Of a stretch of 64,000 nucleotides of DNA, positions 18,536-48,027 are shown in pieces (positions within the stretch are counted from its first letter, which is position 1; each line of letters starts with the position of its first letter). The notes beneath the pieces were generated by a model. The model searched no databases. It was not told the DNA's origin and was given only the letters and a program-made list of their open reading frames with translations. The stretch lies in IMG/VR virus record IMGVR_UViG_2541047959_000009; one strand, 5' to 3'. The stretch is from a virus. Lineage: Duplodnaviria; Heunggongvirae; Uroviricota; Caudoviricetes. The position numbers were made by a program, and so were the translations under genes.

Positions 18536-18567
18536 GGTGCCCCCTTAGAAAGTTCCCATAATTGAAC

Positions 18568-18810
18568 TTACTTACCAACAATGACGCGGAAGTTGGAATG
18601 ACCGAGGGATTCACGGACCTGATCAGTTTTGTACATCAGATAACGAAGGCTTACGCGGCCTTTATTTTTTTCTTTCTTGACCATGTACTTAGCAAGTTGA
18701 CCATGGTGAATTTTTTGGTAAACAGAGCCACGGGAAATGCCCTCCCACTCTGCGAACTCTGCAGGCGTAGCCATCTCTTTTGGTACACGAATTGAAATAT
18801 CAGTACTCAT
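18568..18810 (-). CDS. apl: 186 Apl-like excisionase/repressor (HTH)
   Basis: 80-aa ORF first in rightward operon, divergent from cI. Confidence 0.65.
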   Translation of the reverse strand: MSTDISIRVPKEMATPAEFAEWEGISRGSVYQKIHHGQLAKYMVKKEKNKGRVSLRYLMYKTDQVRESLGHSNFRVIVGK

Positions 18811-18931
18811 AGTGCAGTATCTCTTACTTTGTGTGCGTGTTAGTTCGTTTTAGCTCGTCTCTTTAACTCTCACATCAAGAGACACGAAGACATTACGATC
18901 TTGATTCAAGATTGTCAAATGGAGATTACCA
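18811..18931. promoter_or_regulatory. Divergent apl/cI switch region (pR/pL-type promoters and operators)
   Basis: 121-bp gap between divergent apl and cI, as in 186. Confidence 0.5.
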
Positions 18932-19564
18932 ATGTTAAACATCAGAATGGGTTCCGATACGGGAGGTAAGGCAGCTATTGAGAGGCTGCTTGAGGCTTAT
19001 GGATTCACAACTAAGCAGGCATTAAGCGAGCACCTGAATGTCTCAAAAAGTACTATGGCAAACAGAGTGTTACGTGACAGTTTTCCTGCTGACTGGATAA
19101 TTCAGTGTGCACTAGAAACCGGTGTTTCGTTACTTTGGTTAGCCACTGGACAGGGAAGCATGAAAGAAGGATACGAGTCTGAGAAAAGATCTCATAACGA
19201 GAACAAACAAGCAATTAAACCGTTATCCAAACTCATAACTCCATCTATTCCTAAAGGAACCTTGGAAAATGGACAACTCAGTATTGATGAAGAGATTTTC
19301 CTAGACCACAGCATATTACCTGCAGATTATGAAGAATCGATGTTCTTAGAAACCCCTACTGATTGTTATCTCATCGATAAATCAGTTAAACAAGTCAGCA
19401 ATGGATTCTGGCTTATCAATATTGATGGAATGATTATTATTGCAAAAATCATGCGGATTCCCGGCAATAAGATTGTAGTAAATCAAGATGAAGCGTCTTT
19501 CGAGTGCTCTGCCGATGATGTGGAAGTTATTGGGCGTGCAGTCAAAGTAATAAAGAGTATCTAA
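18932..19564 (+). CDS. cI: 186 CI-like immunity repressor
   Basis: 210-aa ORF upstream of and co-oriented with int (cI-int operon as in 186). Confidence 0.8.
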   Translation: MLNIRMGSDTGGKAAIERLLEAYGFTTKQALSEHLNVSKSTMANRVLRDSFPADWIIQCALETGVSLLWLATGQGSMKEGYESEKRSHNENKQAIKPLSKLITPSIPKGTLENGQLSIDEEIFLDHSILPADYEESMFLETPTDCYLIDKSVKQVSNGFWLINIDGMIIIAKIMRIPGNKIVVNQDEASFECSADDVEVIGRAVKVIKSI

Positions 19565-19566
19565 AC

Positions 19567-20586
19567 ATGACTGTCAGAAAACAGCCAAACGGTAAATGGT
19601 TGTGCGAGTGCTATCCCAATGGACGCAATGGCAAGCGCGTGCGTAAGCAATTTGCTACGAAAGGCGAAGCCATTGCTTTTGAAAGCTTCACAATGGAAGA
19701 AGTGAACAAAAAACCATGGCTGGGGGAAAAGGAAGATCGGCGACACCTATCAGAATTAATTGAGCAGTGGTATTCCCTGTATGGTCAAACACTCGCAGAC
19801 CCCAAGCGCCTCATAGCGAAACTTAGAATTATCTGTAATGGTCTAGGCGATCCCATCGCTTCAGAACTGACAGCCGGTGACTTTACGAAATACCGCGAAG
19901 CACGGTTAAAAGGTGAAGTACGAAATGAAGATGGCACGTTTATGTCGCCCGTTAAGCCCCGCACGGTAAACCTTGAACAGCGCAATCTATCATCTGTTTT
20001 TGGTACACTGAAAAAGCTGGGCCACTGGTCAGCCCCCAACCCGCTTGCTGGGCTGCCAACATTTAAAATTGCTGAGAGTGAATTGGCGTTCCTGACCCCG
20101 GAAGAAATTAAACGTCTGCTGGATGCCTGCGCCGATTCTCAAAGCTCCAGCCTGCTTTTGATTGCAAAAATATGCCTGGCCACCGGCGCACGCTGGAGCG
20201 AAGCCGAAAACCTGCAGAGTCATCAGGTATCAAAATACCGTATCACTTATACCAAGACCAAAGGCAAGAAAAACCGAACTGTGCCTATTTCTAAGGATTT
20301 ATATGAAGAACTGCCTAAGAATAGGGGGAAGTTATTCACCCCATGCAGAAAAGCCTTTGAGCGTGCAGTAAAGCGAGCCGGTTTAGAACTACCAGAAGGC
20401 CAATGTACCCATGTTCTGCGCCATACATTTGCCAGTCATTTTATGATGAACGGTGGAAATATACTGGTACTGCGCGATATTCTTGGACATGCCGATATAA
20501 AAATGACGATGATTTACGCTCATTTTTCCCCAGATCATCTTGAAGATGCAGTAACTAAAAACCCATTAGCAACCTTGATGGATTAA
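19567..20586 (+). CDS. int: Tyrosine integrase (P2/186 family)
   Basis: 339-aa ORF; C-terminal R...HxLRHT...Y catalytic pattern (VLRHTFAS, IYAHF). Confidence 0.85.
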   Translation: MTVRKQPNGKWLCECYPNGRNGKRVRKQFATKGEAIAFESFTMEEVNKKPWLGEKEDRRHLSELIEQWYSLYGQTLADPKRLIAKLRIICNGLGDPIASELTAGDFTKYREARLKGEVRNEDGTFMSPVKPRTVNLEQRNLSSVFGTLKKLGHWSAPNPLAGLPTFKIAESELAFLTPEEIKRLLDACADSQSSSLLLIAKICLATGARWSEAENLQSHQVSKYRITYTKTKGKKNRTVPISKDLYEELPKNRGKLFTPCRKAFERAVKRAGLELPEGQCTHVLRHTFASHFMMNGGNILVLRDILGHADIKMTMIYAHFSPDHLEDAVTKNPLATLMD

Positions 20587-20590
20587 GCAC

Positions 20591-21814
20591 ATGCGCAACA
20601 TTATCGAATTAGAACAGATATCGGAAGAACTAAAAAAACATGAACTATTGCAACCCCCATTCATTGCCGAGGGAAAACTAATTTCTGACTTTTCTAAGAG
20701 AGTCGAGTGCTATTTAGAATTAATTGACTCCATTAGAAATAAATATCCTGACAACGAGATAATTAAACAAGTAAAGATTCGCACAAAATCAATAATATAT
20801 TTATCTGATAAAATAATAGAAACTCTTAAGCTATTTTTAATAGGAAATGTTAAAGAAGCTTATAAAAAATTCGATTTGGCAATTACCAAGTCATCAATGC
20901 ATACTCATCTTTATAAGATGACTGTTCCTCTAACTAAATTATGCAACCCACACACCCCTTTATTTCGCGTAAGGAAAAGTGAGTGCATCCTAAAACAAAG
21001 AGAAGAATTATTTCATATACCATTTAAAAATAGACATTTAGTTAGCGCACAAAGATTTTCTGTATCCGGTCTTCCATGTTTATATCTTGGAACATCAATA
21101 TTTGTATGTTGGCAAGAAATGGGAAAACCTGACTTTGATAAACTTTACATATCTTCCTTCATATCCGATAAAGAAAATTCAAATATAAGAATTTTAGATC
21201 TTGGGTACAATTTAACATCTGCACTTCGTACAAAACCGGGAGATCTTTGGTATTCATTCGAACAAGGTTCAGATGATGATTACGATCTAAATAATGATAA
21301 TTTCATGGATCAAATTAATGATAAAATTTCAAAGTTGATTGCATGGCCTTTAGTCCTTGCATGTAACTATACAAAAGATAATGAAAACGCAAGTTTTAAT
21401 AAAGAATACATAATACCAAACCTATTAATGCAATGGATTAGTAGTGACAGAAACAAAAATATATCAGGGATATCGTATCGATCAACAAAGATATTAAACC
21501 AAAAAGATAGCGATATTGGGATTAATGTAATTATCCCCCCAAAAATAGAAAACATAGTTGAAACCAATGATACCCACTGTCCTGTTTTAAAAAAAATATT
21601 TAGAGTTACAAACCCTGTTTCCTGGACTGTGTTTAGTACACTAGAAGCCACCCCCTATCTATACAAAAATAATTTTAATTTTTCGACCTATAATCCCGCA
21701 AAAGGATGGATTGAAGACTTTGATGAATCCCTTGTTGAACATTATGAAAATACCACTTTTAGAAAAGTTGAACTCCTTATTCATCAAATGATGAAGTATG
21801 AATATTTAAAATAA
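20591..21814 (+). CDS. RES-domain-like protein (putative NAD-targeting toxin fold), AT-rich cargo after int
   Basis: 407-aa ORF 4 bp after int stop; segment SAQRFSVSGLPCLYLGTSIFVCWQEMG matches the RES Arg/Ser/Glu signature as I recall. Confidence 0.5.
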   Translation: MRNIIELEQISEELKKHELLQPPFIAEGKLISDFSKRVECYLELIDSIRNKYPDNEIIKQVKIRTKSIIYLSDKIIETLKLFLIGNVKEAYKKFDLAITKSSMHTHLYKMTVPLTKLCNPHTPLFRVRKSECILKQREELFHIPFKNRHLVSAQRFSVSGLPCLYLGTSIFVCWQEMGKPDFDKLYISSFISDKENSNIRILDLGYNLTSALRTKPGDLWYSFEQGSDDDYDLNNDNFMDQINDKISKLIAWPLVLACNYTKDNENASFNKEYIIPNLLMQWISSDRNKNISGISYRSTKILNQKDSDIGINVIIPPKIENIVETNDTHCPVLKKIFRVTNPVSWTVFSTLEATPYLYKNNFNFSTYNPAKGWIEDFDESLVEHYENTTFRKVELLIHQMMKYEYLK

Positions 21815-21930
21815 GAGTGGCGGCATAATGGCGGCAAAGAGTTAAAAACACATAAAACAAGGTAATACATCGTAAACTTAAGTGATTGAAAATTAACATA
21901 AATAGTTGTTTTGCAACATGTTATAATGGT

Positions 21931-21975
21931 ATGTAGGAATTTCGGACGCGGGTTCAACTCCCGCCAGCTCCACCA
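21931..21975 (+). other. 45-nt copy of the ssrA (tmRNA) 3-prime end: prophage attachment core
   Basis: atgtaggaatttcggacgcgggttcaactcccgccagctccacca matches the remembered E. coli ssrA 3-prime end; upstream is unrelated AT-rich DNA. Confidence 0.7.
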
Positions 21976-22104
21976 ATCATGATTGGACGGTGTAAGGACA
22001 ACACCAACAAAAACAGGAAGTTAGAAGTCTCAGCAGGACACCGACCAGACGGTGAGGAGACATAAAAGGATACGCAAAGGAGCCGCGGCTCCGAAGTGAA
22101 ATGA

Positions 22105-22129
22105 AAGCCCGCTGATGCGGGCTTTTTTG
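22105..22129 (+). terminator. Rho-independent terminator
   Basis: agcccgc tgat gcgggct followed by tttttt. Confidence 0.6.
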
Positions 22130-22360
22130 CTTCTTCTCTTTAGCCTGATTCGACACTCTCAATGCGGCCATAAACAACAACCCACTTTTCTTATACCGTA
22201 GCCTGTCCCCCTCTTCCTGCTTTCTAACCATAACAGATGTGAGCGTTTGCTATGAGCGATATATAGTCATTCGTACCCTCCGATACTAATCATCACAGAA
22301 ATTAATATATTCATTCCTTACTGAAAAGCTATGAAGTAGATATATAGGATTGGGGCGCGT

Positions 22361-22558
22361 ATGGCACTGGACAGTTATGCATCTCCGAATATTATTCCGG
22401 AGCTAAGACAACCGAATGCCGCAGCAGGTAAGATCACGCTAGGGGGGCTGGACAGAATGGCTGTTACGCCCAGTGTGAAGAAAAGAAGGCTAAGTATGGT
22501 AGAATTTCCATACGCACAGACCTTGTTATCCGACTATACAGCCTGGAAGGCACTATGA
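22361..22558 (+). CDS. Small ORF upstream of and overlapping the nuclease-like gene (uncertain)
   Basis: 65-aa ORF with ATGA stop-start overlap with the next gene. Confidence 0.3.
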   Translation: MALDSYASPNIIPELRQPNAAAGKITLGGLDRMAVTPSVKKRRLSMVEFPYAQTLLSDYTAWKAL

Positions 22559-23343
22559 CAAATCTACAACTGGAAGAAAGATTTAGGGCGCTTGAGAAAG
22601 ATTACGATGCGCTCATTTCCACAAAATATACTGCGCAGAACGTTCTCACTCACACTATGGAAACCTATGTTGATTCTGGTAAATATAAAAACTGGATCGC
22701 CAGAGTGAAAAAGTTAATAGAGGACAGCTACGGAAAAGAGTCTGATTATTACAATGACTTCAATACTGTAAACAGCAGGTGGTCTTCTAATTACAATACA
22801 CTGATCAAAAGTTATAAACCGTTGTTTGATGCGGCGAGAGATGATCTTGCGCACTCTGCTGTCAGTACTAATACTCCTCAAGAAGGTTCGCCGCTGAGCC
22901 TCGTACTTAATATTCTTAACAGGTTTCCGACCTTTGTTCGCCAGTTAAAGAGGCGGTACAACGGCCGTGCGCCGCTTGAAGTTAATGATGAGTATGACGT
23001 ACAGGATTTGATTTATGCACTGCTGACGCTTCATTTTAATGATATTAGGGCGGAAGAGTATACCCCCAGCTTTGCGGGCGCGGCCTCAAGACAGGACTTT
23101 CTTTTGAAAAAAGAGAAAATTGTGATAGAGGTGAAGAAAACCCGTGAATCTCTGGGAGCGGGTAAAGTTGGTGGAGAGTTGCTTATTGATATGGCGCGCT
23201 ACCGCGCTCACCAAGACTGCGATACGTTGATCTTGTTTGTATATGACCCGGATTGCTACATAAATAATCCTTTGGGCGTGAAAACCGATCTGGAATCTAA
23301 AGACGCGGAAGGAAAAGTGAAGGTTGTTATTGCGCAGTTCTGA
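22555..23343 (+). CDS. PD-(D/E)xK nuclease-like protein (putative restriction-endonuclease fold)
   Basis: 262-aa ORF; C-terminal EYDVQD...RQDFLLKKEKIVIEVKK fits D...D/E-x-K; helical N-terminal domain. Confidence 0.55.
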   Translation: MTNLQLEERFRALEKDYDALISTKYTAQNVLTHTMETYVDSGKYKNWIARVKKLIEDSYGKESDYYNDFNTVNSRWSSNYNTLIKSYKPLFDAARDDLAHSAVSTNTPQEGSPLSLVLNILNRFPTFVRQLKRRYNGRAPLEVNDEYDVQDLIYALLTLHFNDIRAEEYTPSFAGAASRQDFLLKKEKIVIEVKKTRESLGAGKVGGELLIDMARYRAHQDCDTLILFVYDPDCYINNPLGVKTDLESKDAEGKVKVVIAQF

Positions 23344-23378
23344 CACGCTTAAGTGTCACCTTACAGGATTAGGTTTGC

Positions 23379-23423
23379 GGCCGTGCCAGCAGGACGAGCA
23401 TGAAAAAGGCCGCTGGCACGGCC
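23379..23423. terminator. Hairpin between convergent genes
   Basis: ggccgtgccagc ... gctggcacggcc 12-bp stem. Confidence 0.4.
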
Positions 23424-23430
23424 GGATTTG

Positions 23431-23724
23431 TCATCTTTGCCAGGTCAAATCAAAATCTACGTGAAAATCCGCAGGCTTAAGCTCGCAACTGCCACCACGC
23501 CCAATTAACGACGTTATGTTTACAACGTTTGAACCTGTTGAGATGGCAAGTTGAGTGTCATCTGTAAACGTGATGATTAGCATTTCAGTCTGATGAACCT
23601 GTACTCCAGTTTTCTGAAAACCAATCTGGACAGATTTCACCGTTTTCCCAACCATTTCACGGGCTTGATTGATAGAGTAATTAGCTTCAACTTGTAGGTC
23701 ATTCCTGAACTTGGGTAGTGTCAT
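23431..23724 (-). CDS. Hypothetical 97-aa protein
   Basis: ORF with AAGAGGATG RBS. Confidence 0.45.
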   Translation of the reverse strand: MTLPKFRNDLQVEANYSINQAREMVGKTVKSVQIGFQKTGVQVHQTEMLIITFTDDTQLAISTGSNVVNITSLIGRGGSCELKPADFHVDFDLTWQR

Positions 23725-23934
23725 TTTACATCCTCTTTAGTGAAGTTTTCGCTATTTAAATCAGCAGCATTCCTTTTAAATCACTGGCATGTCAGCAGTG
23801 GATAGTCTGAGTGTAACGTCCAGTGAGGGGAATAAATATTGGTCAGACTTTGCACAAAAGAGCCAACTATCGCGGGCTCTCTCTCATCATGTGCGAAAAT
23901 TGACCACAATATGAAATCCAGTTCCATTCCGAAA

Positions 23935-24759
<825 letters not shown>

Positions 24760-24865
24760 TCAATTGACAACTTATAATCCCTACTAGTTAGCATTATGAT
24801 TTCCAGAGTGAGGAATATAAAAATCTCTGTTTCTGGCACATAACAGCCCTTAAGATCGTAGCTCG

Positions 24866-24915
24866 CCATCATGGGGTGTCGGGGGGCGGAGGTTCAAATC
24901 CTCTCGTGCCGACCA
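24866..24915 (+). other. 3-prime fragment of a tRNA-Pro(UGG)-like gene (att-like remnant), not an intact tRNA
   Basis: catggggtgtcggggggcggaggttcaaatcctctcgtgccgacca matches remembered proM 3-prime half; no complementary 5-prime acceptor strand upstream. Confidence 0.55.
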
Positions 24916-24928
24916 AAAATCCCTTAAG

Positions 24929-24955
24929 AACCAGCCTATTATGGCTGGTTTTTTT
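24929..24955 (+). terminator. Rho-independent terminator after the tRNA-Pro fragment
   Basis: aaccagcc tattat ggctggtt then ttttt. Confidence 0.6.
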
Positions 24956-25156
24956 ATGATTGTTTTTTATGCGGAGAAATACCGGGGAATAATTGGGGTA
25001 AAACACCTTTAGGCTATTCACTTAGCCTACCACCATCAAAATCTTTCCGAATGTATCCATCTCTTTTTTCTTATGCAGCTAAAACGAAGTCTTGATACTG
25101 TTTATTTACACAGATAAGAATAATACTGTCTACAAACGCAGTACAAAAGAAGTGTT

Positions 25157-25335
25157 ATGCGTATTGAGATCTCCATAGCCAAAGACAAAATGACCAAATG
25201 CCAAACGGCGCTGTGGACGCGTTAAAGGAAGAATTAACCCAACACATTGGCAAGCGTTATGACGATGTGGAGATGATCGTAAAAGCCACCAGCAACGATA
25301 GTTTTTCAGTTAGACATACTGCAGATAAAGATTGA
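25157..25335 (+). pseudogene. dinI-like gene disrupted by a frameshift
   Basis: [11 protein letters not shown]... stops after 22 codons; the DinI-like remainder ...[37 protein letters not shown] is in another frame. Confidence 0.45.
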
Positions 25336-25759
25336 GCTAAAACTTTCGTTCAGGAAACTCTGAATGATACCTGAGAGTCTACTGAAGAGTTGTTTGTTCA
25401 CTAGTTAGCACGTAGGAAATCATTCAATACTCGCACTATCGGAAGTTCACCAGCCAGTCGTAGCACGTCCTTGCAAACGACGTGCCTACGGTTTCAATCA
25501 CCTCTCACCATCAATTCTATCAATAATAATTAAACAGCGCCTAGACAAAATAAATAACAACAAGTCAACAACCTCGACAGGATGCCGATGGGATGATGAA
25601 GAGATAAGAAAGAATAACCAGTAAAGCCCTAAAACGTCAGCGTTCAGACGCGTTTTTTACTTAATCGGTAACAAATACGTTGTATCATAGCAAAATAAAA
25701 TGATTGTTCTAAATCAGATTAACTCCTCACTTTTGTACAATGTCGCTTACAGGTATACC

Positions 25760-27649
25760 ATGAAATCCGAGACGCTAACTGTCCAACAACTTTTTCAAGA
25801 CCGCCGACAATACTGTGTTCCATTCTATCAACGTGCCTATGTATGGACTCAGCAAGACCAGTGGTCAGCTCTACTGGAGGATATCCTAGAGAAAGTACAA
25901 TCCCGGCTCTCGGGTACAAAACCAACTCCCCATTTCCTTGGTGCGGTTGTACTGGAACCTCAATCAAAAAAAGGATTATTAGGTGTAGATTCCATACATA
26001 TTATTGATGGTCAGCAACGATTGACCACTCTTCAATATGTTCTGGCATCCATCCGATTAGCATTACGTGCTACGGATCTTTCCAGCTTAGAGGCTCTCAT
26101 TTCGCCTTGCCTGAAAAACTCAAACGAAGACACAATGCGAAATAAAGAAGTAGAACGCTTCAAACTGTGGCCAACTTTTCGGGATCAAACTCATTTTATT
26201 CAAAGTTTTAATGTTGAAAATATTGACGATCTCCGGGACGTATTCTCTGATAGTTTCACGCAGCATGGTACGTTGCGTAAGCATTTTAATCACCCGCCAT
26301 CACTAGAAGCATTATGTTTTTTTACTGAAGCCTTTATAAAATGGATTAAAATAGAAAACCACTCACCACAAGAAAATGCTGTAGCTCTAATTGAGGCTGT
26401 CTTAACAGATCTGAAACTGGTAAGCATATTTCTCGAAGCTGAAGATGATGCCCAAATAATTTTTGAAACATTAAATGGGCGAGGGGCGGAACTTCATGCT
26501 ACGGATCTTATTCGCAACTATATCTTTATGTGCGCTGAGCATGAAAATATTAATGCTATTGAATTATATGAAAATGAGTGGAAGAGCTTTGAAGATAAAT
26601 ACTGGTCGGAAAAACAACGCCGTGGACGTATTAATAAACCACGCATGGAGTGGCTAGTACATGCGACATTGCAATCAGAAAGGCAACGTGAAATTGATCT
26701 GTCTCGCCTTTACAATGAGTATCGTGATTATGTAAGTAAGGACTTGTCTTCACAACGAGCAGATCTGCAAGTAAAGCGCCTCAAACAATATGCATCACAA
26801 TATAAAGAATTGGTTGATGGTTTTGGCACAACCCCCATCTCACACTTTGGATATCGCATCGCAGACTATGATGTGACGACACTTTATCCGCTTGCTTTGT
26901 TCATTTCGATAGCTAACATCGCTGATGATGAGAAAGCAGCCATGTATAATGATCTTGTCTCCTACGTAGTACGAAGAGCCGTATGTGGCCTGACGCCAAA
27001 GAATTACAACAATGTATTTATGAATGTATTGCGGCACTTGGCTAAAACGGAAATTTCCAGTGTTGAGTTACGTAATATCCTCAATAACTTAAATGGCGAA
27101 GCCTCACGTTGGCCTGGTGACTCAGAATTTCTCAACGCTTGCATCAATGCTCCACTTTATCCTGGCAGGCTCGACGCACCGAAAATGCGCTCAATGTTAA
27201 CGGAACTTGAAAGAGAACTTTGTCGCCAAGTAAAGACAGAAAAGCCTGATGTTCCAAATCTTTCTAATCTCGATATCGATCATCTTATGCCTCAAAGTTG
27301 GTATTCCTGTTGGCCTCTCGAAAATGGTCGTATGGTGACAAATTCAGATGCTACGGTATTGAACCAAATTGTTCTGTCTGGAACCGATCTTACCCCTGAA
27401 CAGCTACTGGTAAGGAAACGGCAACAAGCGATATCTACTTTGGGAAATCTAACTTTGCTTAACCTTAGCGTAAACCGTTCTGTTCAGAATGCTGTATTTC
27501 TGAAAAAACGTGATGCTCTCATCGTCCACACCAATCTACGACTGAACATTCCACTTATAGTTAAGGATAAATGGGATGAGGATGAAATCCTGGAGCGGGG
27601 TAAAAAGTTGGGGGAAATTGCATTGAAAGTATGGCCAAAACACGATTAA
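25760..27649 (+). CDS. GmrSD-family type IV restriction endonuclease-like protein (DUF262 + DUF1524)
   Basis: N-terminal QRAYVW and IIDGQQRLTTL; C-terminal DIDHLMPQS...GNLTLLN His-Me finger; ORF opens at 25700 but AGGT RBS favours ATG 25760. Confidence 0.75.
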   Translation: MKSETLTVQQLFQDRRQYCVPFYQRAYVWTQQDQWSALLEDILEKVQSRLSGTKPTPHFLGAVVLEPQSKKGLLGVDSIHIIDGQQRLTTLQYVLASIRLALRATDLSSLEALISPCLKNSNEDTMRNKEVERFKLWPTFRDQTHFIQSFNVENIDDLRDVFSDSFTQHGTLRKHFNHPPSLEALCFFTEAFIKWIKIENHSPQENAVALIEAVLTDLKLVSIFLEAEDDAQIIFETLNGRGAELHATDLIRNYIFMCAEHENINAIELYENEWKSFEDKYWSEKQRRGRINKPRMEWLVHATLQSERQREIDLSRLYNEYRDYVSKDLSSQRADLQVKRLKQYASQYKELVDGFGTTPISHFGYRIADYDVTTLYPLALFISIANIADDEKAAMYNDLVSYVVRRAVCGLTPKNYNNVFMNVLRHLAKTEISSVELRNILNNLNGEASRWPGDSEFLNACINAPLYPGRLDAPKMRSMLTELERELCRQVKTEKPDVPNLSNLDIDHLMPQSWYSCWPLENGRMVTNSDATVLNQIVLSGTDLTPEQLLVRKRQQAISTLGNLTLLNLSVNRSVQNAVFLKKRDALIVHTNLRLNIPLIVKDKWDEDEILERGKKLGEIALKVWPKHD

Positions 27650-27899
27650 TGCAATTAATAAAATGATTATAGTGGCCTTACATTAGTAAGGCCGCTACTC
27701 ACTATTAAATACTTTAATTTGCATCAAGAACAGCAGTGTCAGCCCTAGGTCTCGGACTTTGTACCGCTTATCTTGTCTTCAAAAATCAGCTCGCATCCTG
27801 CACAGTTCAGCGCATTACGTTGTAGATCTGTGTTCTGGTCATTTGTTGACACACGTACATAGCCAATAAGCATGGTAGATCTCCCTGACAAAAGCAGGA

Positions 27900-28196
27900 A
27901 TGATGCCATTTGCTCGTTATTTCTGCATTTTCATAAACGTTGGTTTGGGAGAAGGCGCTGCATGGCCTGTGGGCGTCGCTGATAAACAGACCCCAGACAC
28001 ATCGCTCAGGACGGGTCTGAGATGCAACGGAACGGCTGTGATTGGTGAACCTTACCGGGAAATCATTCAGACTGATCCGGTAAGTATAAGGCGCGAATTG
28101 CCTATGAATGGAATGACTGACAGTGCTGATGGGCGCGGAGGTGATAATAGGCGTTCTGTGGTCTCAGCACCATTGCCAACTGTATTTACTATTTAG
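27900..28196 (+). pseudogene. 5-prime-truncated copy of the tail-fibre constant-region 3-prime end (left arm of mirrored cassette)
   Basis: ...GLGEGAAWPVGVADKQTPD...LRCNG...VVSAPLPTVFTI parallels the C-terminus of the fibre gene at 29612-30157; in-frame stop at 27876. Confidence 0.5.
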
Positions 28197-28200
28197 GTGC
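28176..28200. repeat. Left copy of 25-bp inverted repeat at the fibre junction
   Basis: ccaactgtatttactatttaggtgc; 24/25 identical to the reverse complement of 29608-29632. Confidence 0.6.
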
Positions 28201-28394
28201 TGGTAGCTATCCTCTTGGGATCTTCGAGAGGTTCAGGTGCTATATTCAGTAATATAGTAGGGTCAGGCGCAACCGGGGTTAGCATTACCGTCGCCGTCAG
28301 TAGGAATAATACCGTTGTGGGCACAGTGGCCGTACCACTGATTGCAACCTGTCCTTCCAATACCAGAGTCTCCGCTATAGTGATAGCACGGTAA
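28197..28394 (+). CDS. Short glycine-rich tail-fibre distal segment (Sv-prime-like), GTG start after in-frame TAG
   Basis: 65 codons in frame with upstream fragment; GSGAIFSNIVGSGATGV...RNNTVVGT homologous to the minus-strand counterpart. Confidence 0.4.
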   Translation: MLVAILLGSSRGSGAIFSNIVGSGATGVSITVAVSRNNTVVGTVAVPLIATCPSNTRVSAIVIAR

Positions 28395-28738
28395 TGATGA
28401 AAGCAGTATTCTATACAGGACGAAGTGCAACAAATGATCGGCAAGATATGGTTCAAGAATATGATGGTGAGAGAACGCTACCTGATGACACTTTAGAAAT
28501 TTACATTGACATAGGTGAGCGAATCCCTGGACAGTCCTCACAAGGTAAAGCAAGTGTAGCTGAGGCTGCAGAAGCGCCCGGTTGTATTGAGTATTCACAT
28601 CCATCGGAAGAGGTTCAGGAGCTGCCGGGTGAAATCGACAAAATATCTTTGACTTCAGAATTAAATCAAAACACAGCAACCCATGATTGGCCCGGAAATG
28701 CTACTACTGGTCGTCTAATAGGCCCGTACCATGCGTAA
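28394..28738 (+). CDS. Tail-fibre assembly/adhesin-like protein (U-prime-like)
   Basis: 114-aa ORF, TAATG overlap with previous ORF; C-terminal ...HDWPGNA; paralogous to 29088-29414. Confidence 0.5.
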   Translation: MMKAVFYTGRSATNDRQDMVQEYDGERTLPDDTLEIYIDIGERIPGQSSQGKASVAEAAEAPGCIEYSHPSEEVQELPGEIDKISLTSELNQNTATHDWPGNATTGRLIGPYHA

Positions 28739-29087
28739 GATGATTCGTGGCGGGAGTACCATAACGAGCTGGAGCTGGGCGACGCTTCATACGCGGCAGA
28801 TGCTCAGTGTCAGACACCTACGGATGTTGAGACCGGTTGCCACGGGGCGCTTTAGCTGAAATTGCAGCCCGCACCGAATCTAAGGAATGCAGCAAAAACC
28901 CAACCTGAGGCGTTGCTGGCTGAATTAGATTCGGTCCGGGCTACAATTACCACCAAATCGCACGATTTCAAGTCGTCTGAGCTGCCATCGGCGTCGGACG
29001 TTGTATTTCTGCCGCGTAGAATGTGTCGCCCTGTTCCAGTGCGGTCACGGTCTCCAACCTCGCACTATACTACTTCACTTCCTCGGT

Positions 29088-29414
29088 TTATAGGCCAATA
29101 ATAGCTGTTTTTTCGGGCCAATGACGCGGATTGGTGTTGGTATTGGCTTCTCCAGTTAAGGATATTTTGATGATTTCAGCCCTCAACTCCTGAACCTCTT
29201 CCCATGGGTTTGGGTACTTAGACCAACATGTCGCTCCACACGCGTCAGCTCTACCTGCTTCATCTTGACGGGGAAGTGCCGGGATTCCATCATAAATGTC
29301 TCTATATACACTTGTAACAGAAACAGATACCCTAGCTTCACCATCATATTTTTGAACCGAATTATCCCGTGACATAGTATTAATAACGGGACTAATTAAT
29401 ATTGAGTTATTCAT
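29088..29414 (-). CDS. Tail-fibre assembly/adhesin-like protein (U-like)
   Basis: Start MNNSILISP at 29414 with AGGA RBS; C-terminal ...PRHWPEKTA; paralogous to 28394-28738. Confidence 0.5.
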   Translation of the reverse strand: MNNSILISPVINTMSRDNSVQKYDGEARVSVSVTSVYRDIYDGIPALPRQDEAGRADACGATCWSKYPNPWEEVQELRAEIIKISLTGEANTNTNPRHWPEKTAIIGL

Positions 29415-29434
29415 TACGGTCCTATCATGAAATA

Positions 29435-29611
29435 TTAAACTCTGATATCGCATGGACAGGTATCGATCGGTGTTTCGTCGACTGTGAACGAAACCGTATT
29501 ATTCTTCCTGTCAGCGACAAAAGAATTAACCGCGGTCGCGTATGAACCTGCAATATCAGTAAATTCACCACCTGAGGCTCTCGTAGATACCGGGGGGATA
29601 ACTCGCTGCAC
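29435..29611 (-). CDS. Short tail-fibre distal segment (Sv-like), GTG start right after the TAG of the fibre gene
   Basis: 58 codons VQRVIPPVSTRASGGEFTDIAGS...KNNTVSF...TCPCDIRV, homologous to 28197-28394. Confidence 0.4.
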   Translation of the reverse strand: MQRVIPPVSTRASGGEFTDIAGSYATAVNSFVADRKNNTVSFTVDETPIDTCPCDIRV

Positions 29612-29632
29612 CTAAAAAGTAAATACAGTTGG
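29608..29632. repeat. Right copy of 25-bp inverted repeat at the fibre junction
   Basis: Reverse complement ccaactgtatttactttttaggtgc. Confidence 0.6.
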
Positions 29633-30157
29633 CTCTTGGGCTGAGACAACCTCAGGCTTTTTATAACCGGTGAGGCCATCAGCCTTGCCAGTAATACCCT
29701 TACCAGCCACTGGGGCGATTTTACTTGCCGGAACAACCTTTGTCATTTCCCGGTAATGTTCAGCAAACAAAAACGCTCCATTGCAACTAATCAAGGTTGA
29801 GGGAGGTATATCAGAAGGTTGGGTATCAGGGACGCCCACAGTTCGTGCAGAGCCTTCTCCCAAACCAAGGTTTTCGAGAGCCGTTTTCACCGTGCCGTCC
29901 GATTTGATATCGCTAAACGGATTCTTGCGGCTTAACAGCAGCGCACGAAGCGCGGTAAGCAGCTGGTCGTGCCGCGCCTTCTCCAGACTGGCACCGGATG
30001 CCTCCACCACGCTGCAGAGTTCTTCCTGCAACATGTCAAAGTAGTCATCATCCAGATCGGTGGCAGGCGTGCCTGTCTGGGGGTTACCACGGGTAAAACC
30101 GTTCTTACCCGCGCCGAACTTATCCTTCTGCGCGGTTTTCGTGTCTATACGATGCAT
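29612..30157 (-). CDS. Tail fibre protein, conserved N-terminal (constant) part
   Basis: 181-aa [32 protein letters not shown]..., the N-terminus I associate with Mu-type tail fibres; ends at TAG inside the repeat. Confidence 0.65.
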
Positions 30158-30160
30158 GGA

Positions 30161-30745
30161 TTACTCCGGATATTTAAAAATTACGTAGGTATGCGAAGGG
30201 CAGAGTTTGTTAAGCACACATTCGACGACGGTGTCGCCCCAGATACGCAGCGCGGAATCACAGGGATCGCCACATGTCATCCAGGTGCTGTTGGTGGCGG
30301 CTGGCATGTTGACCTGCCAGTAATACCGCCATTCCGGCGCATTCACCGCGTCAGTACAGGCCGATGAGCAGGTGAACGTGCTTTTGTCGTATCGCGTGAT
30401 GGTGGCGTCTGGTCTGCCCAGGGCAGCAAGCTGTGCAAGGTAAAAATCCTCATTGATGCCGCCCGCCAGGTTAACCTTCGCATCCAGTCGTTGCTGACGC
30501 TGGCGAAGGGTCTGTGTTCCTGCGGGAATACATTCATCCGGCAGGCCGCACAGACGCTCCCAGCGATTTATCAGTTCGGTGGTGGTGCGCGGATCCAGCT
30601 CCCGCATCAGGGCATCCGCACGCTGATGAACGCGGGTTAATGACTGTGCCGCACCGGCAATCGCCGGATCGCTGGCTGACCACGCCGGACCGGGCGGCAG
30701 CAGTGCCGACAACAGACGGATGTAATCATCGTTTGTCACGCCCAT
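30161..30745 (-). CDS. Mu gp48 / YmfQ-like tail protein (DUF2313)
   Basis: 194-aa ORF between baseplate J-like gene and tail fibre. Confidence 0.65.
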
Positions 30746-47586: not shown

Positions 47587-48027
47587 ATGAGTATCCCCAG
47601 TTTAGATGTTCATAAAGTTGTTAAGTGCGCAGAGCATAAAAAGGCTTTAGATGCAATATCTCTCAAACTTAAGAATAACATTATTGACTCAAGCTCTGAA
47701 TACGATTTTCTTGGCGACACAATAATTTTCAATAAAGATAAAAAAAATAGGTTAACCCTCAAACTTTCAACATATGAACTAGAACTTATTTTCAAAGAAA
47801 CACTGCTAGTCATTGATGAAGCTCCTGTATTGAAGTTTGCTGCCATTGACCCAACCGATGAAAATAACAACGAGCTGATTGATTTATTTTTATCCAAAGG
47901 TGGATTTATTTATATTAGAGAATACAAATCCGAGCCACATTATGAGTATGGCGACACTTCTCTATTTTTACATATACTTGACGCTACTCTTAAAGAGCTT
48001 AAATCTGCAAACAAAATATCCTATTAA
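47587..48027 (+). CDS. Hypothetical AT-rich moron protein (146 aa)
   Basis: Plus-strand ORF opposite to the late operon; AGGTGG RBS before ATG 47587. Confidence 0.45.
   Translation: MSIPSLDVHKVVKCAEHKKALDAISLKLKNNIIDSSSEYDFLGDTIIFNKDKKNRLTLKLSTYELELIFKETLLVIDEAPVLKFAAIDPTDENNNELIDLFLSKGGFIYIREYKSEPHYEYGDTSLFLHILDATLKELKSANKISY

Follow-up and report, generated by a model that had tools for sequence, protein, structure and literature searches.

A tail-fibre inversion switch of an e14-like prophage, deposited as a per-base mosaic of its two orientations beside a truncated invertase gene

The locus and its question

In a 64,000-nucleotide stretch of phage DNA (hereafter the window), short tail-fibre-like and Tfa-like Open Reading Frames (ORFs) on the two strands face each other, in the manner of an invertible host-range segment. 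The initial annotation read this as a tail-fibre cassette with a diverged mirror copy (fibre fragment, Sv-prime and U-prime) and noted that no invertase accompanies it. Is the locus a decayed relic or a genuine switch, and if it is a switch, why do its genes look truncated and what could invert it?

The source of the window is E. coli UMEA 3893-1, an ST95-type strain with a draft genome (assembly GCA_000461775.1). The locus belongs to an e14-like prophage that has a Mu-type tail, appears to be complete and is integrated at ssrA. Of ssrA itself just the 3' end lies in the window, near 21931, where it forms an att copy, and ARAGORN found no tRNA or tmRNA in the window. Beyond positions 27955–29845 the flanks are base-identical to the ST95 strains UTI89, S88 and IHE3034; compared with UTI89, identity is complete in each 100-nt bin of the flanks and 52–73% in the segment interior, where no gaps occur. 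The coordinates of all features are collected in Table 1.

Table 1. Features of the tail-fibre locus, in window positions
Feature	Position	Strand	Remarks
GmrSD/DUF262 type IV restriction gene	25760..27649	+	Pfam GmrSD_N 7e-34, GmrSD_C 4e-20
pin invertase stump	27751-27873	-	codons 1-41 (MLIGYVRVSTNDQ...GTKSE); adjoins left crossover site
Putative Fis-dependent recombinational enhancer	27789..27852		pin nt ~22-85, inside stump; placed by Hin geometry and gin/pinE homology
Left crossover site	27928..27953		TTTTCATAAACG-TT-GGTTTGGGAGAA; central dinucleotide 27940-27941
Right crossover site	29855..29880		TTCTCCCAAACC-AA-GGTTTTCGAGAG; central dinucleotide 29867-29868
Invertible segment	27940..29868		1,929 bp; here a per-base mosaic of both orientations, the sequence of no real molecule
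Sc, constant 5' part of tail-fibre gene	29869..30157	-	codons 1 to ~96, ends ...ALENLGLGE; outside invertible segment
SvF, variable fibre part (true forward content, UTI89/S88)	29414..29868	-	UTI89/S88 annotation shares window coordinates
tfaE, 200-aa chaperone for SvF (true forward content)	28812..29414	-	from annotation; Pfam Caudo_TAP 4.4e-30
Tfa', second tail-fibre assembly gene, 147 aa (true forward content)	28397..28840	+	from annotation; Pfam Caudo_TAP 5.9e-28
SvR, alternative variable fibre part (true forward content)	27940..28394	+	no own start; inversion gives second 247-aa fibre
Window text ORF, 181 aa	29612-30157	-	listed
Window text ORF, 58 aa	29435-29611	-	listed
Window text ORF, 121 aa	29088-29453	-	listed
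Window text ORF, 98 aa	27900-28196	+	listed
Window text ORF, 65 aa	28197-28394	+	listed
Window text ORF, 114 aa	28394-28738	+	listed

The deposited segment is a mixture of two orientations

The segment is not a simple inversion relative to UTI89, as the reverse complement of the UTI89 sequence is likewise only 64% identical to it, and a mosaic test was therefore made. When 1,939 positions were compared with the UTI89 forward sequence and its exact reverse complement, 699 agreed with the forward sequence only, 662 with the inverted one only and 578 with both, while none agreed with neither. Within the segment proper, all informative sites fit one of the two orientations (0 of 1,359 match neither) and are split 697:662 (binomial p=0.36). 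The probability that all 1,359 sites would fit one of two given bases by chance is ~1e-409, and each base substituted relative to UTI89 is the base of the inverted orientation. The segment in the window is thus a 50:50 base-by-base mixture of the two orientations of an e14-type tail-fibre segment.

The choice between orientations at each site is made without base preference, mirror correlation, spatial trend or autocorrelation (lag-1 autocorrelation of −0.04), and these statistics rule out both a fixed rule for ties (for example, whichever base comes first in the alphabet) and a choice made block by block. Between the window and the UTI89 segment, all 12 substitution types occur at like counts (42–67 each), the mismatches are distributed over the codon phases without bias (228/223/211) and indels are absent, by which natural divergence or pseudogenisation of the cassette was ruled out. 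A diversity-generating retroelement or other targeted hypermutation, considered for a segment with 35% substitutions and no indels, was ruled out because the spectrum is not adenine-specific.

The ORFs listed in the initial annotation are present at their coordinates, and the mirror symmetry of the window text can be measured: positions 27940–29868 are 64.7% identical to their own reverse complement without gaps, and a 50-nt inverted repeat at 88% is found at 27935–27984 / 29824–29873. However, when the real, UTI89-type segment is compared with its own reverse complement, identity falls to the chance level (29.5%). The 65% mirror symmetry and the short ORFs of Sv-like and Tfa-like appearance are therefore products of a text that mixes two orientations, and the mirrored, seemingly diverged cassette is an artefact of assembly. 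Pfam matches are obtained with the deconvoluted proteins, and none with the chimeric ORFs of the window.

The chimeric 181-aa ORF is the public protein ERA20530.1 (UMEA 3893-1), a singleton among ~15 billion proteins. As it is already in GenBank, an alteration confined to this copy of the window was ruled out. No sibling mosaic was found among 29 contigs holding the stump protein described below, whose contexts are forward, inverted or degraded, and with the true fibre protein as query all of the at least 120 matches listed are genuine fibres. A promoter and terminator scan of the region gave background level, and in a mosaic sequence such a scan is meaningless.

Crossover sites and the invertible segment

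The crossover core CTTCTCCCAAACCAA has exactly two copies in the 64-kb window, inverted to each other, where 0.19 are expected by chance, and the number is still two when 2 mismatches are allowed. Between this core and the e14 repeat of the literature, CCTTCTCCCAAACCAA (PMC12529663), there is no difference, and the left site aligns with the crossover sites beside e14 pinE and Mu gin. The invertible interval, first placed at 28201–29607, is accordingly wider, with crossover centres at 27940/41 and 29867/68.

In-silico inversion at these centres reproduces IHE3034 exactly, the segment of that strain being the exact reverse complement of the UTI89 segment between identical flanks. Both pure orientations occur in complete genomes at 100% identity, the forward one in 111 and the inverted one in 43; the latter, found at 100% identity and coverage, include IHE3034 and APEC O1. 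Because the exact inverted form exists in complete genomes, the locus is a real inversion switch. Two prophage integrases are the only tyrosine recombinases annotated. A shufflon was ruled out by the presence of just two core copies and by the absence of any annotated tyrosine recombinase beyond these integrases.

A serine invertase would exchange strands at the two inverted 26-bp sites and flip the 1,929 bp between the crossover centres. Either of two unrelated receptor-binding ends, 146 residues long and each followed by its own Tfa chaperone, would thereby be joined to one constant fibre N-terminus (~96–101 residues).

Fibre and chaperone genes of the deconvoluted orientations

In each deconvoluted orientation a 247-aa fibre is followed by a Tfa protein (200 or 147 aa), and the two cassettes stand head to head with the crossover inside the fibre gene; the ORFs of the real segment are 247, 200, 147 and 163 aa. 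The constant part Sc, whose ORF starts at 30157, is 100% identical to UTI89, S88 and IHE3034 and shows 95% identity to residues 1–106 of e14 StfP. SvF completes a 247-aa fibre with a Collar domain (Pfam, 1.2e-15) and is related to e14 StfE. SvR has a weak Gp53-like_C match (1.3e-4) below the Pfam cut-off, and the SvR-type 247-aa fibre is encoded by IHE3034 (WP_000554664.1). Tfa' and TfaE are 31% identical over 80 aa and share only the C-terminal Caudo_TAP part; Tfa' serves the alternative fibre after inversion.

The two real variable parts are unrelated (SvF against SvR, BLASTP E=0.5), and so the supposed mirror arm has no counterpart on alignment of real sequences. This lack of relationship had been proposed as grounds for rejecting an invertible segment, but the inversion switch is genuine all the same. 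The left arm does lack a fibre N-terminus, as the initial annotation observed; this is the normal design of such switches, and its "truncated" look comes from the mosaic.

A truncated invertase gene and a putative enhancer

The earlier statement that no serine invertase ORF is present holds for an intact gene, as none is found in the six frames of the window, but a 41-codon stump of pin had been overlooked. The stump differs from K-12 pinE by 3 mismatches in 122 nt, and the homology stops at nt 122. The catalytic-serine motif is kept, but the remainder of the catalytic domain is missing, as is the DNA-binding domain. The stump matches the Pfam Resolvase N-terminal domain (E=2.9e-9), is annotated in RefSeq as 'recombinase family protein, incomplete' and is the sole phmmer match to PinE or PinQ in the six frames of the window, in which no other recombinase-like frame was found.

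The gene is cut after codon 41, where the GmrSD gene now lies. The latter stands where the rest of pin and then mcrA stand in e14, and it is recognized over its full length by PADLOC as mREase_IV (1415 bits). The junction between the stump and the GmrSD gene is the same in genomes of either orientation.

The Hin enhancer is 65 bp long and lies ~100 bp from the hix site (PMC3798978), and the Mu enhancer is reported to lie within gin (Kahmann 1985). Up to nt 122 the stump can be aligned with gin and pinE, long runs being invariant, and by analogy it probably still carries the Fis enhancer. The placement in Table 1 combines the Hin geometry with the gin alignment.

Origin of the mosaic

The best explanation, in which we have good confidence, is a Pin-type tail-fibre switch whose invertase is encoded elsewhere and whose mosaic arose from both orientations being present in the sequenced DNA. 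To judge from the consensus, the two orientations would have coexisted in the DNA of UMEA 3893-1, and the likeliest cause of the mosaic would be an assembler that merged two equal-length alternative paths site by site. The independent choice at each site is unlike a majority vote over overlapping reads and points to tie-breaking between equal paths. The assembler used for UMEA 3893-1 may have been Broad/ALLPATHS-LG.

Alternatively, the mosaic could be due to software alone, the reads having had a single orientation; the orientation difference within ST95 would then be historical (inversions rare, or earlier than the truncation) and the segment now locked. The K-12 P segment is locked when pinE is lost (PMC12529663), each of the listed sets of close isolates shows one orientation (729_* and APEC E16002/E18006 forward, GN06489/GN06758 inverted), and neither a pinE-like nor a pinQ-like place is found in some chromosomes with the stump. 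However, the perfect repeat of only 15–16 nt is too short to make the assembly graph ambiguous unless reads support both junctions, the stump-GmrSD junction and the flanks are identical in both orientations, and the inverted sequence within the mosaic is exactly the natural inverted form, so that we consider a locked segment unlikely.

Very unlikely, in our judgement, is the collapse of two oppositely oriented genomic copies, for example from a second related prophage, with no mixed population at one locus. Repeat collapse is a frequent assembly error, and related tail-fibre loci are present several times over in some E. coli genomes, at as many as 11 places, but the closest complete relatives have one copy of the locus: UTI89 gives 1 place, and of the 2 places in S88 the second may be the tfa of a P2-like prophage. 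Besides, the window is continuous and unique over 64 kb on both sides of the segment, and a second copy would require identical flanks on both sides.

It is scarcely credible that the deposited text is a genuine diverged mirror copy of the fibre/Sv/Tfa cassette, a decayed and fixed relic with truncated genes and no inversion, which would suit the short mirrored ORFs, the 65% self-complementarity and the want of an intact invertase in the window, but for which forward or inverted UTI89 sequence accounts for all positions, transitions are not in excess over transversions, codon-phase bias and indels are absent, the real arms are unrelated to each other, and 154 complete genomes carry intact forms, in one orientation or the other.

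Inversion in trans

With a switch present in both orientations in the DNA as the preferred reading, the source of the invertase becomes the question. As pin is cut after codon 41, inversion must rely on an invertase supplied from another part of the genome, and we infer that the segment is flipped by such an enzyme. Since the stump-GmrSD junction and the flanks are identical in both orientations, inversion would most simply have followed the truncation of pin.

Several observations make action in trans plausible. The e14 P segment is inverted by the PinQ protein of prophage Qin (PMC12529663), Gin and Hin are exchangeable for one another, as are their sites (PMC1904230), and the Salmonella H segment is reported to be flipped by Fin of Fels-2 (Kutsukake 2006). 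In clonal K-12 cultures, both e14 orientations coexist (PMC4272514). However, in a K-12 pinE mutant the P segment is locked under native conditions (PMC12529663), and inversion in trans is therefore not automatic.

Candidate trans-acting genes were sought as counts of extra BLAST places per chromosome, using composite queries. One extra place matching pinQ was counted in each of the S88 and MS7163 chromosomes, and one matching the 3' part of pinE in each of UTI89, IHE3034 and NU14. Neither a pinE-like nor a pinQ-like place was found by BLAST in the stump-bearing ATCC 11775, ZJ3920 and PMV-1, the last of which has the inverted orientation.

A bolder reading can be offered tentatively, and we hold it to be possible but rather less than probable. 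The locus may be an orphan host-range switch, its own invertase destroyed by the swap of a type IV restriction gene, that is still flipped at high frequency by the invertase of another resident element (pinQ-like in S88-type and pinE-like in UTI89-type genomes), the 122-nt stump being kept in thousands of assemblies as a cis-acting Fis enhancer. If true, the tail-fibre switching of one prophage would depend obligatorily on another mobile element.

Significance

The locus adds another member to the e14/Mu-type tail-fibre switches, a class already known, and its modest peculiarity is a truncated invertase in a lineage that retains both orientations. This would make it a natural setting in which to study inversion in trans and an enhancer acting without its gene. 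For sequence databases, the lesson is that the two states of an invertible element can be blended base by base in a deposited genome. Such a blend yields fake "diverged" genes, for example the singleton proteins ERA20530.1 and WP_024249029.1, and could be mistaken for rapid evolution or pseudogenisation. Comparison of each site with the forward and reverse-complement sequence of a relative detects these blends directly.

Comparison with known systems

A layout of the Mu G, P1 C and e14 P type had been proposed for the locus, and this was borne out: as judged from the repeat core, the 95% identity to StfP, the neighbouring ymfQ and the pin remnant, the locus is directly homologous to the P segment of e14, with only one of the two cassettes common to both. 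The gene order is that of K-12 (ymfQ-stfP-tfaP-tfaE-stfE-pinE-mcrA), ymfQ lies upstream in both, and the 15–16-nt repeat core TTGGTTTGGGAGAAG(G) of e14 is identical here. The shared cassette consists of tfaE and the StfE-like Collar end, whereas the second cassette (SvR and the 147-aa Tfa) is unrelated to the C-terminus of e14 StfP and to TfaP, and the P segment is 1,797 bp long against 1,929 bp here. In place of the mcrA of e14, a GmrSD-type type IV enzyme is found together with PD-T4-3 and other cargo. Moreover, e14 is a remnant at icd, whereas the present prophage looks complete and sits at ssrA.

The Mu G/Gin and P1 C/Cin systems follow the same logic, with a constant Sc, alternative Sv/U and Sv'/U' parts and a crossover inside the fibre gene; their invertase gene lies beside one crossover site and reads away from it, as here. 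The first 122 nt of Mu gin and pin can be aligned, with long invariant runs. However, the cassette sequences of Mu G and P1 C differ from those described here, Mu G is larger (~3 kb), and the invertase here is not intact.

Inversion across prophages, by PinQ on e14 P and by Fin of Fels-2 on Salmonella H, is an earlier example of a segment flipped by the invertase of another element. In both of those cases the invertase of the segment itself is intact, whereas here the foreign enzyme would be obligatory.

The segment in the window is a mosaic of two orientations

The tail-fibre locus belongs to a known type of switch, here with its invertase truncated, and the initial annotation was right to place it in the family of invertible host-range segments. 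The sequence at 27650-30200 is absent as such from complete E. coli genomes, with the best match at 70% coverage and 80% identity. When compared with UTI89 in 100-nt bins, the flanks score 100/100, while 27955-29845 is only 52-73% identical, with 0 gaps. Each of the 12 substitution types accounts for 42-67 of the 662 differences, and the three codon phases have similar shares (228/223/211), which rules out ordinary gene divergence. Aligned in the register 27935<->29873, the reverse complement of the UTI89 segment likewise reaches 64% identity with this interval.

Site by site, 699 of 1,939 positions agree with the forward orientation (UTI89/S88 type) only, 662 with the inverted one (IHE3034 type) only, 578 with both and 0 with neither. 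This test was repeated on 2,551 nt; the forward:inverted split of 697:662 is consistent with a fair coin, and the choice at each site showed no base preference, mirror-position correlation, spatial trend or autocorrelation. An unrelated sequence would match one of two given bases at all 1,359 informative sites with a probability of about 1e-409.

What had been read as a diverged mirror copy is a product of this mosaic: the window segment shares 64.7% identity with its own reverse complement, against 29.5%, the chance level, for the real segment. The longest inverted repeat in the region covers 50 nt (88%; 27935-27984 / 29824-29873). The ORFs listed in the initial annotation are present as mechanical ORFs. 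None of the chimeric ORFs of the window has a Pfam match, and the 181-aa one, GenBank ERA20530.1 of E. coli UMEA 3893-1 (GCA_000461775.1, scaffold KE702650.1), is a singleton among ~15 billion proteins. The features that seemed unusual at this locus are consensus-mosaic artefacts or parts of the normal design, and the window segment is a cautionary case of invertible DNA misrepresented in draft genomes.

The real segment and its variants

In silico, we flipped the part of UTI89 lying between the two central dinucleotides (27940..29868). This inverted form was found with 100% identity and coverage in 43 complete genomes, including IHE3034 and APEC O1, and the forward form in 111. Reverse-complementing the UTI89 segment gives exactly the IHE3034 segment, and a single SNP is the only difference between the IHE3034 flanks and the window from 21931 to 47746. 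Exactly two copies of the crossover core, TTGGTTTGGGAGAAG, occur in the 64 kb, inverted relative to each other.

The fibre gene from 30157 has 247 codons in either orientation, and both versions share N-terminal residues 1 to about 101 (...ALENLGLGE). In one version the end carries a Collar domain, and TfaE (200 aa) comes next; the other has an end unrelated to the first that gives a weak Gp53-like_C match, with a 147-aa Tfa behind it. The real variable ends show no relationship to each other (BLASTP E=0.5), and the two Tfa chaperones share 31% identity across 80 residues.

Variants of the locus exist in APEC IMT5155, N66 and the contigs L011 and L015. Some are remnants in which most of the prophage is gone; they retain the invertase stump, GmrSD and a portion of the segment next to an IS element. 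Because its homology does not begin until window 27926, one variant genome lacks the stump; its segment is inverted. Another has an IS3 insertion inside the matched span. Some draft contigs (L017, L018) stop 40-90 nt into the segment, just beyond the crossover site, perhaps because the orientation was ambiguous in those assemblies too. In L017, a different cassette adjoins the same stump.

Possible origin of the mosaic

With perfect repeats of just 15-16 nt, an assembler needs junction reads of both kinds to see two paths, and we infer that both orientations were present in UMEA 3893-1 DNA. With reads for both junctions, the assembler would see two paths of equal length, which could be collapsed column by column like a SNP cluster, with one allele chosen per site; such a collapse would give a gapless, uncorrelated mosaic as observed. 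The strain was presumably sequenced in a Broad project using ALLPATHS-LG, whose ambiguity encoding could lead to this collapse. For e14, clonal cultures are known to contain both orientations (PMC4272514).

Prophage surroundings and cassettes in other phages

From 21931 to its end, the window is essentially identical to, and collinear with, UTI89; outside the invertible segment, the compared part differs from UTI89 and IHE3034 only at 24228 (one SNP) and near 47747 (one indel). Window 14000-23000 is 100% identical to S88, MS7163 and N53, in which P2-like and e14-like prophages lie in tandem at ssrA. The identity with UTI89 starts within the ssrA 3' end (~21931-21975), an att copy between the two prophages. 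The complete ssrA is located upstream of the P2-like prophage, which is why ARAGORN did not detect a tmRNA in the window.

The prophage end adjoining the stump (22555-27649) is a small defence island, and the P2-like prophage (window 1-21930) carries accessory defence genes. A 407-aa ORF adjoining the P2-type integrase has no match in Pfam or PADLOC.

Coordinates of defence-related and neighbouring features in the window
Feature	Coordinates	Location	Evidence or status
AIPR/AbiU-like gene	561-2261	P2-like prophage	
PD-T7-1	11127-12536	P2-like prophage	PADLOC 1.3e-196
407-aa ORF	20591-21814 (+)		RefSeq: hypothetical
DpnII/MboI-type REase-domain protein	22555-23343		Pfam 9.5e-49
PD-T4-3 / LEM-3 GIY-YIG	23935-24708		PADLOC 8.5e-136
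DinI-like pseudogene	25157-25374		
GmrSD type IV enzyme	25760-27649		full length

About half of the segment is shared, at 87-90% identity, by P2-like phages (e.g. Escherichia phage 500465-1 and P2 from O157:H43 T22) and a set of Klebsiella phages (phage records H173-H187), so the cassettes circulate among unrelated tail modules. At least two of these phages are annotated with an intact DNA invertase.

The truncated invertase and proposed inversion in trans

Directly left of 27900-30157, the frame 27745-27909(-) translates as MLIGYVRVSTNDQNTDLQRNALNCAGCELIFEDKISGTKSE, the N-terminus of a Pin/Gin/Hin invertase, which matches the Pfam Resolvase N-terminal domain (E=2.9e-9). The initial annotation, which reported no serine invertase ORF, missed this N-terminus, although no intact invertase is present in the window. 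The stump has 3 mismatches to pinE nt 1-122, and the homology ends there. It is the sole window frame similar to PinE or PinQ, and RefSeq labels it an incomplete recombinase in UTI89, S88 and IHE3034. In the assembly collection, 6,620 index blocks contain the stump protein; its junction with GmrSD is very common and occurs in both forward and inverted genomes.

The enhancer of Hin spans 65 bp and lies ~100 bp from a hix site (PMC3798978), and that of Mu is located inside gin (Kahmann 1985, as cited there). Alignment with gin and pinE extends over the retained 122 nt, which span the interval expected for the enhancer by Hin geometry; covering this interval, the stump may still supply the enhancer in cis.

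With pin destroyed, inversion would require an enzyme in trans. PinQ of prophage Qin inverts e14 P (PMC12529663), and Gin and Hin can be exchanged for one another, as can their sites (PMC1904230). By composite BLAST queries, which give place counts only, the S88 and MS7163 chromosomes have one extra pinQ-like place each, UTI89, IHE3034 and NU14 one extra pinE-like place each, and some stump-bearing chromosomes neither.

Comparison with the e14 P segment

In K-12, the e14 gene order is ymfQ-stfP-tfaP-(tfaE)-(stfE)-pinE-mcrA. The crossover core here is the same as the published e14 P segment repeat (PMC12529663), residues 1-106 of StfP and the constant part of the fibre share 95% identity, and one cassette corresponds to StfE/TfaE, whereas the second differs from its e14 counterpart. 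Judged by the homology of the constant part and one cassette, the locus is a P segment homologue with one cassette exchanged. The defence island takes the position of mcrA in e14, with a full-length GmrSD-type type IV restriction gene where e14 has the remainder of pinE and mcrA, and an exchange of cargo at this prophage end appears to have removed most of pin.
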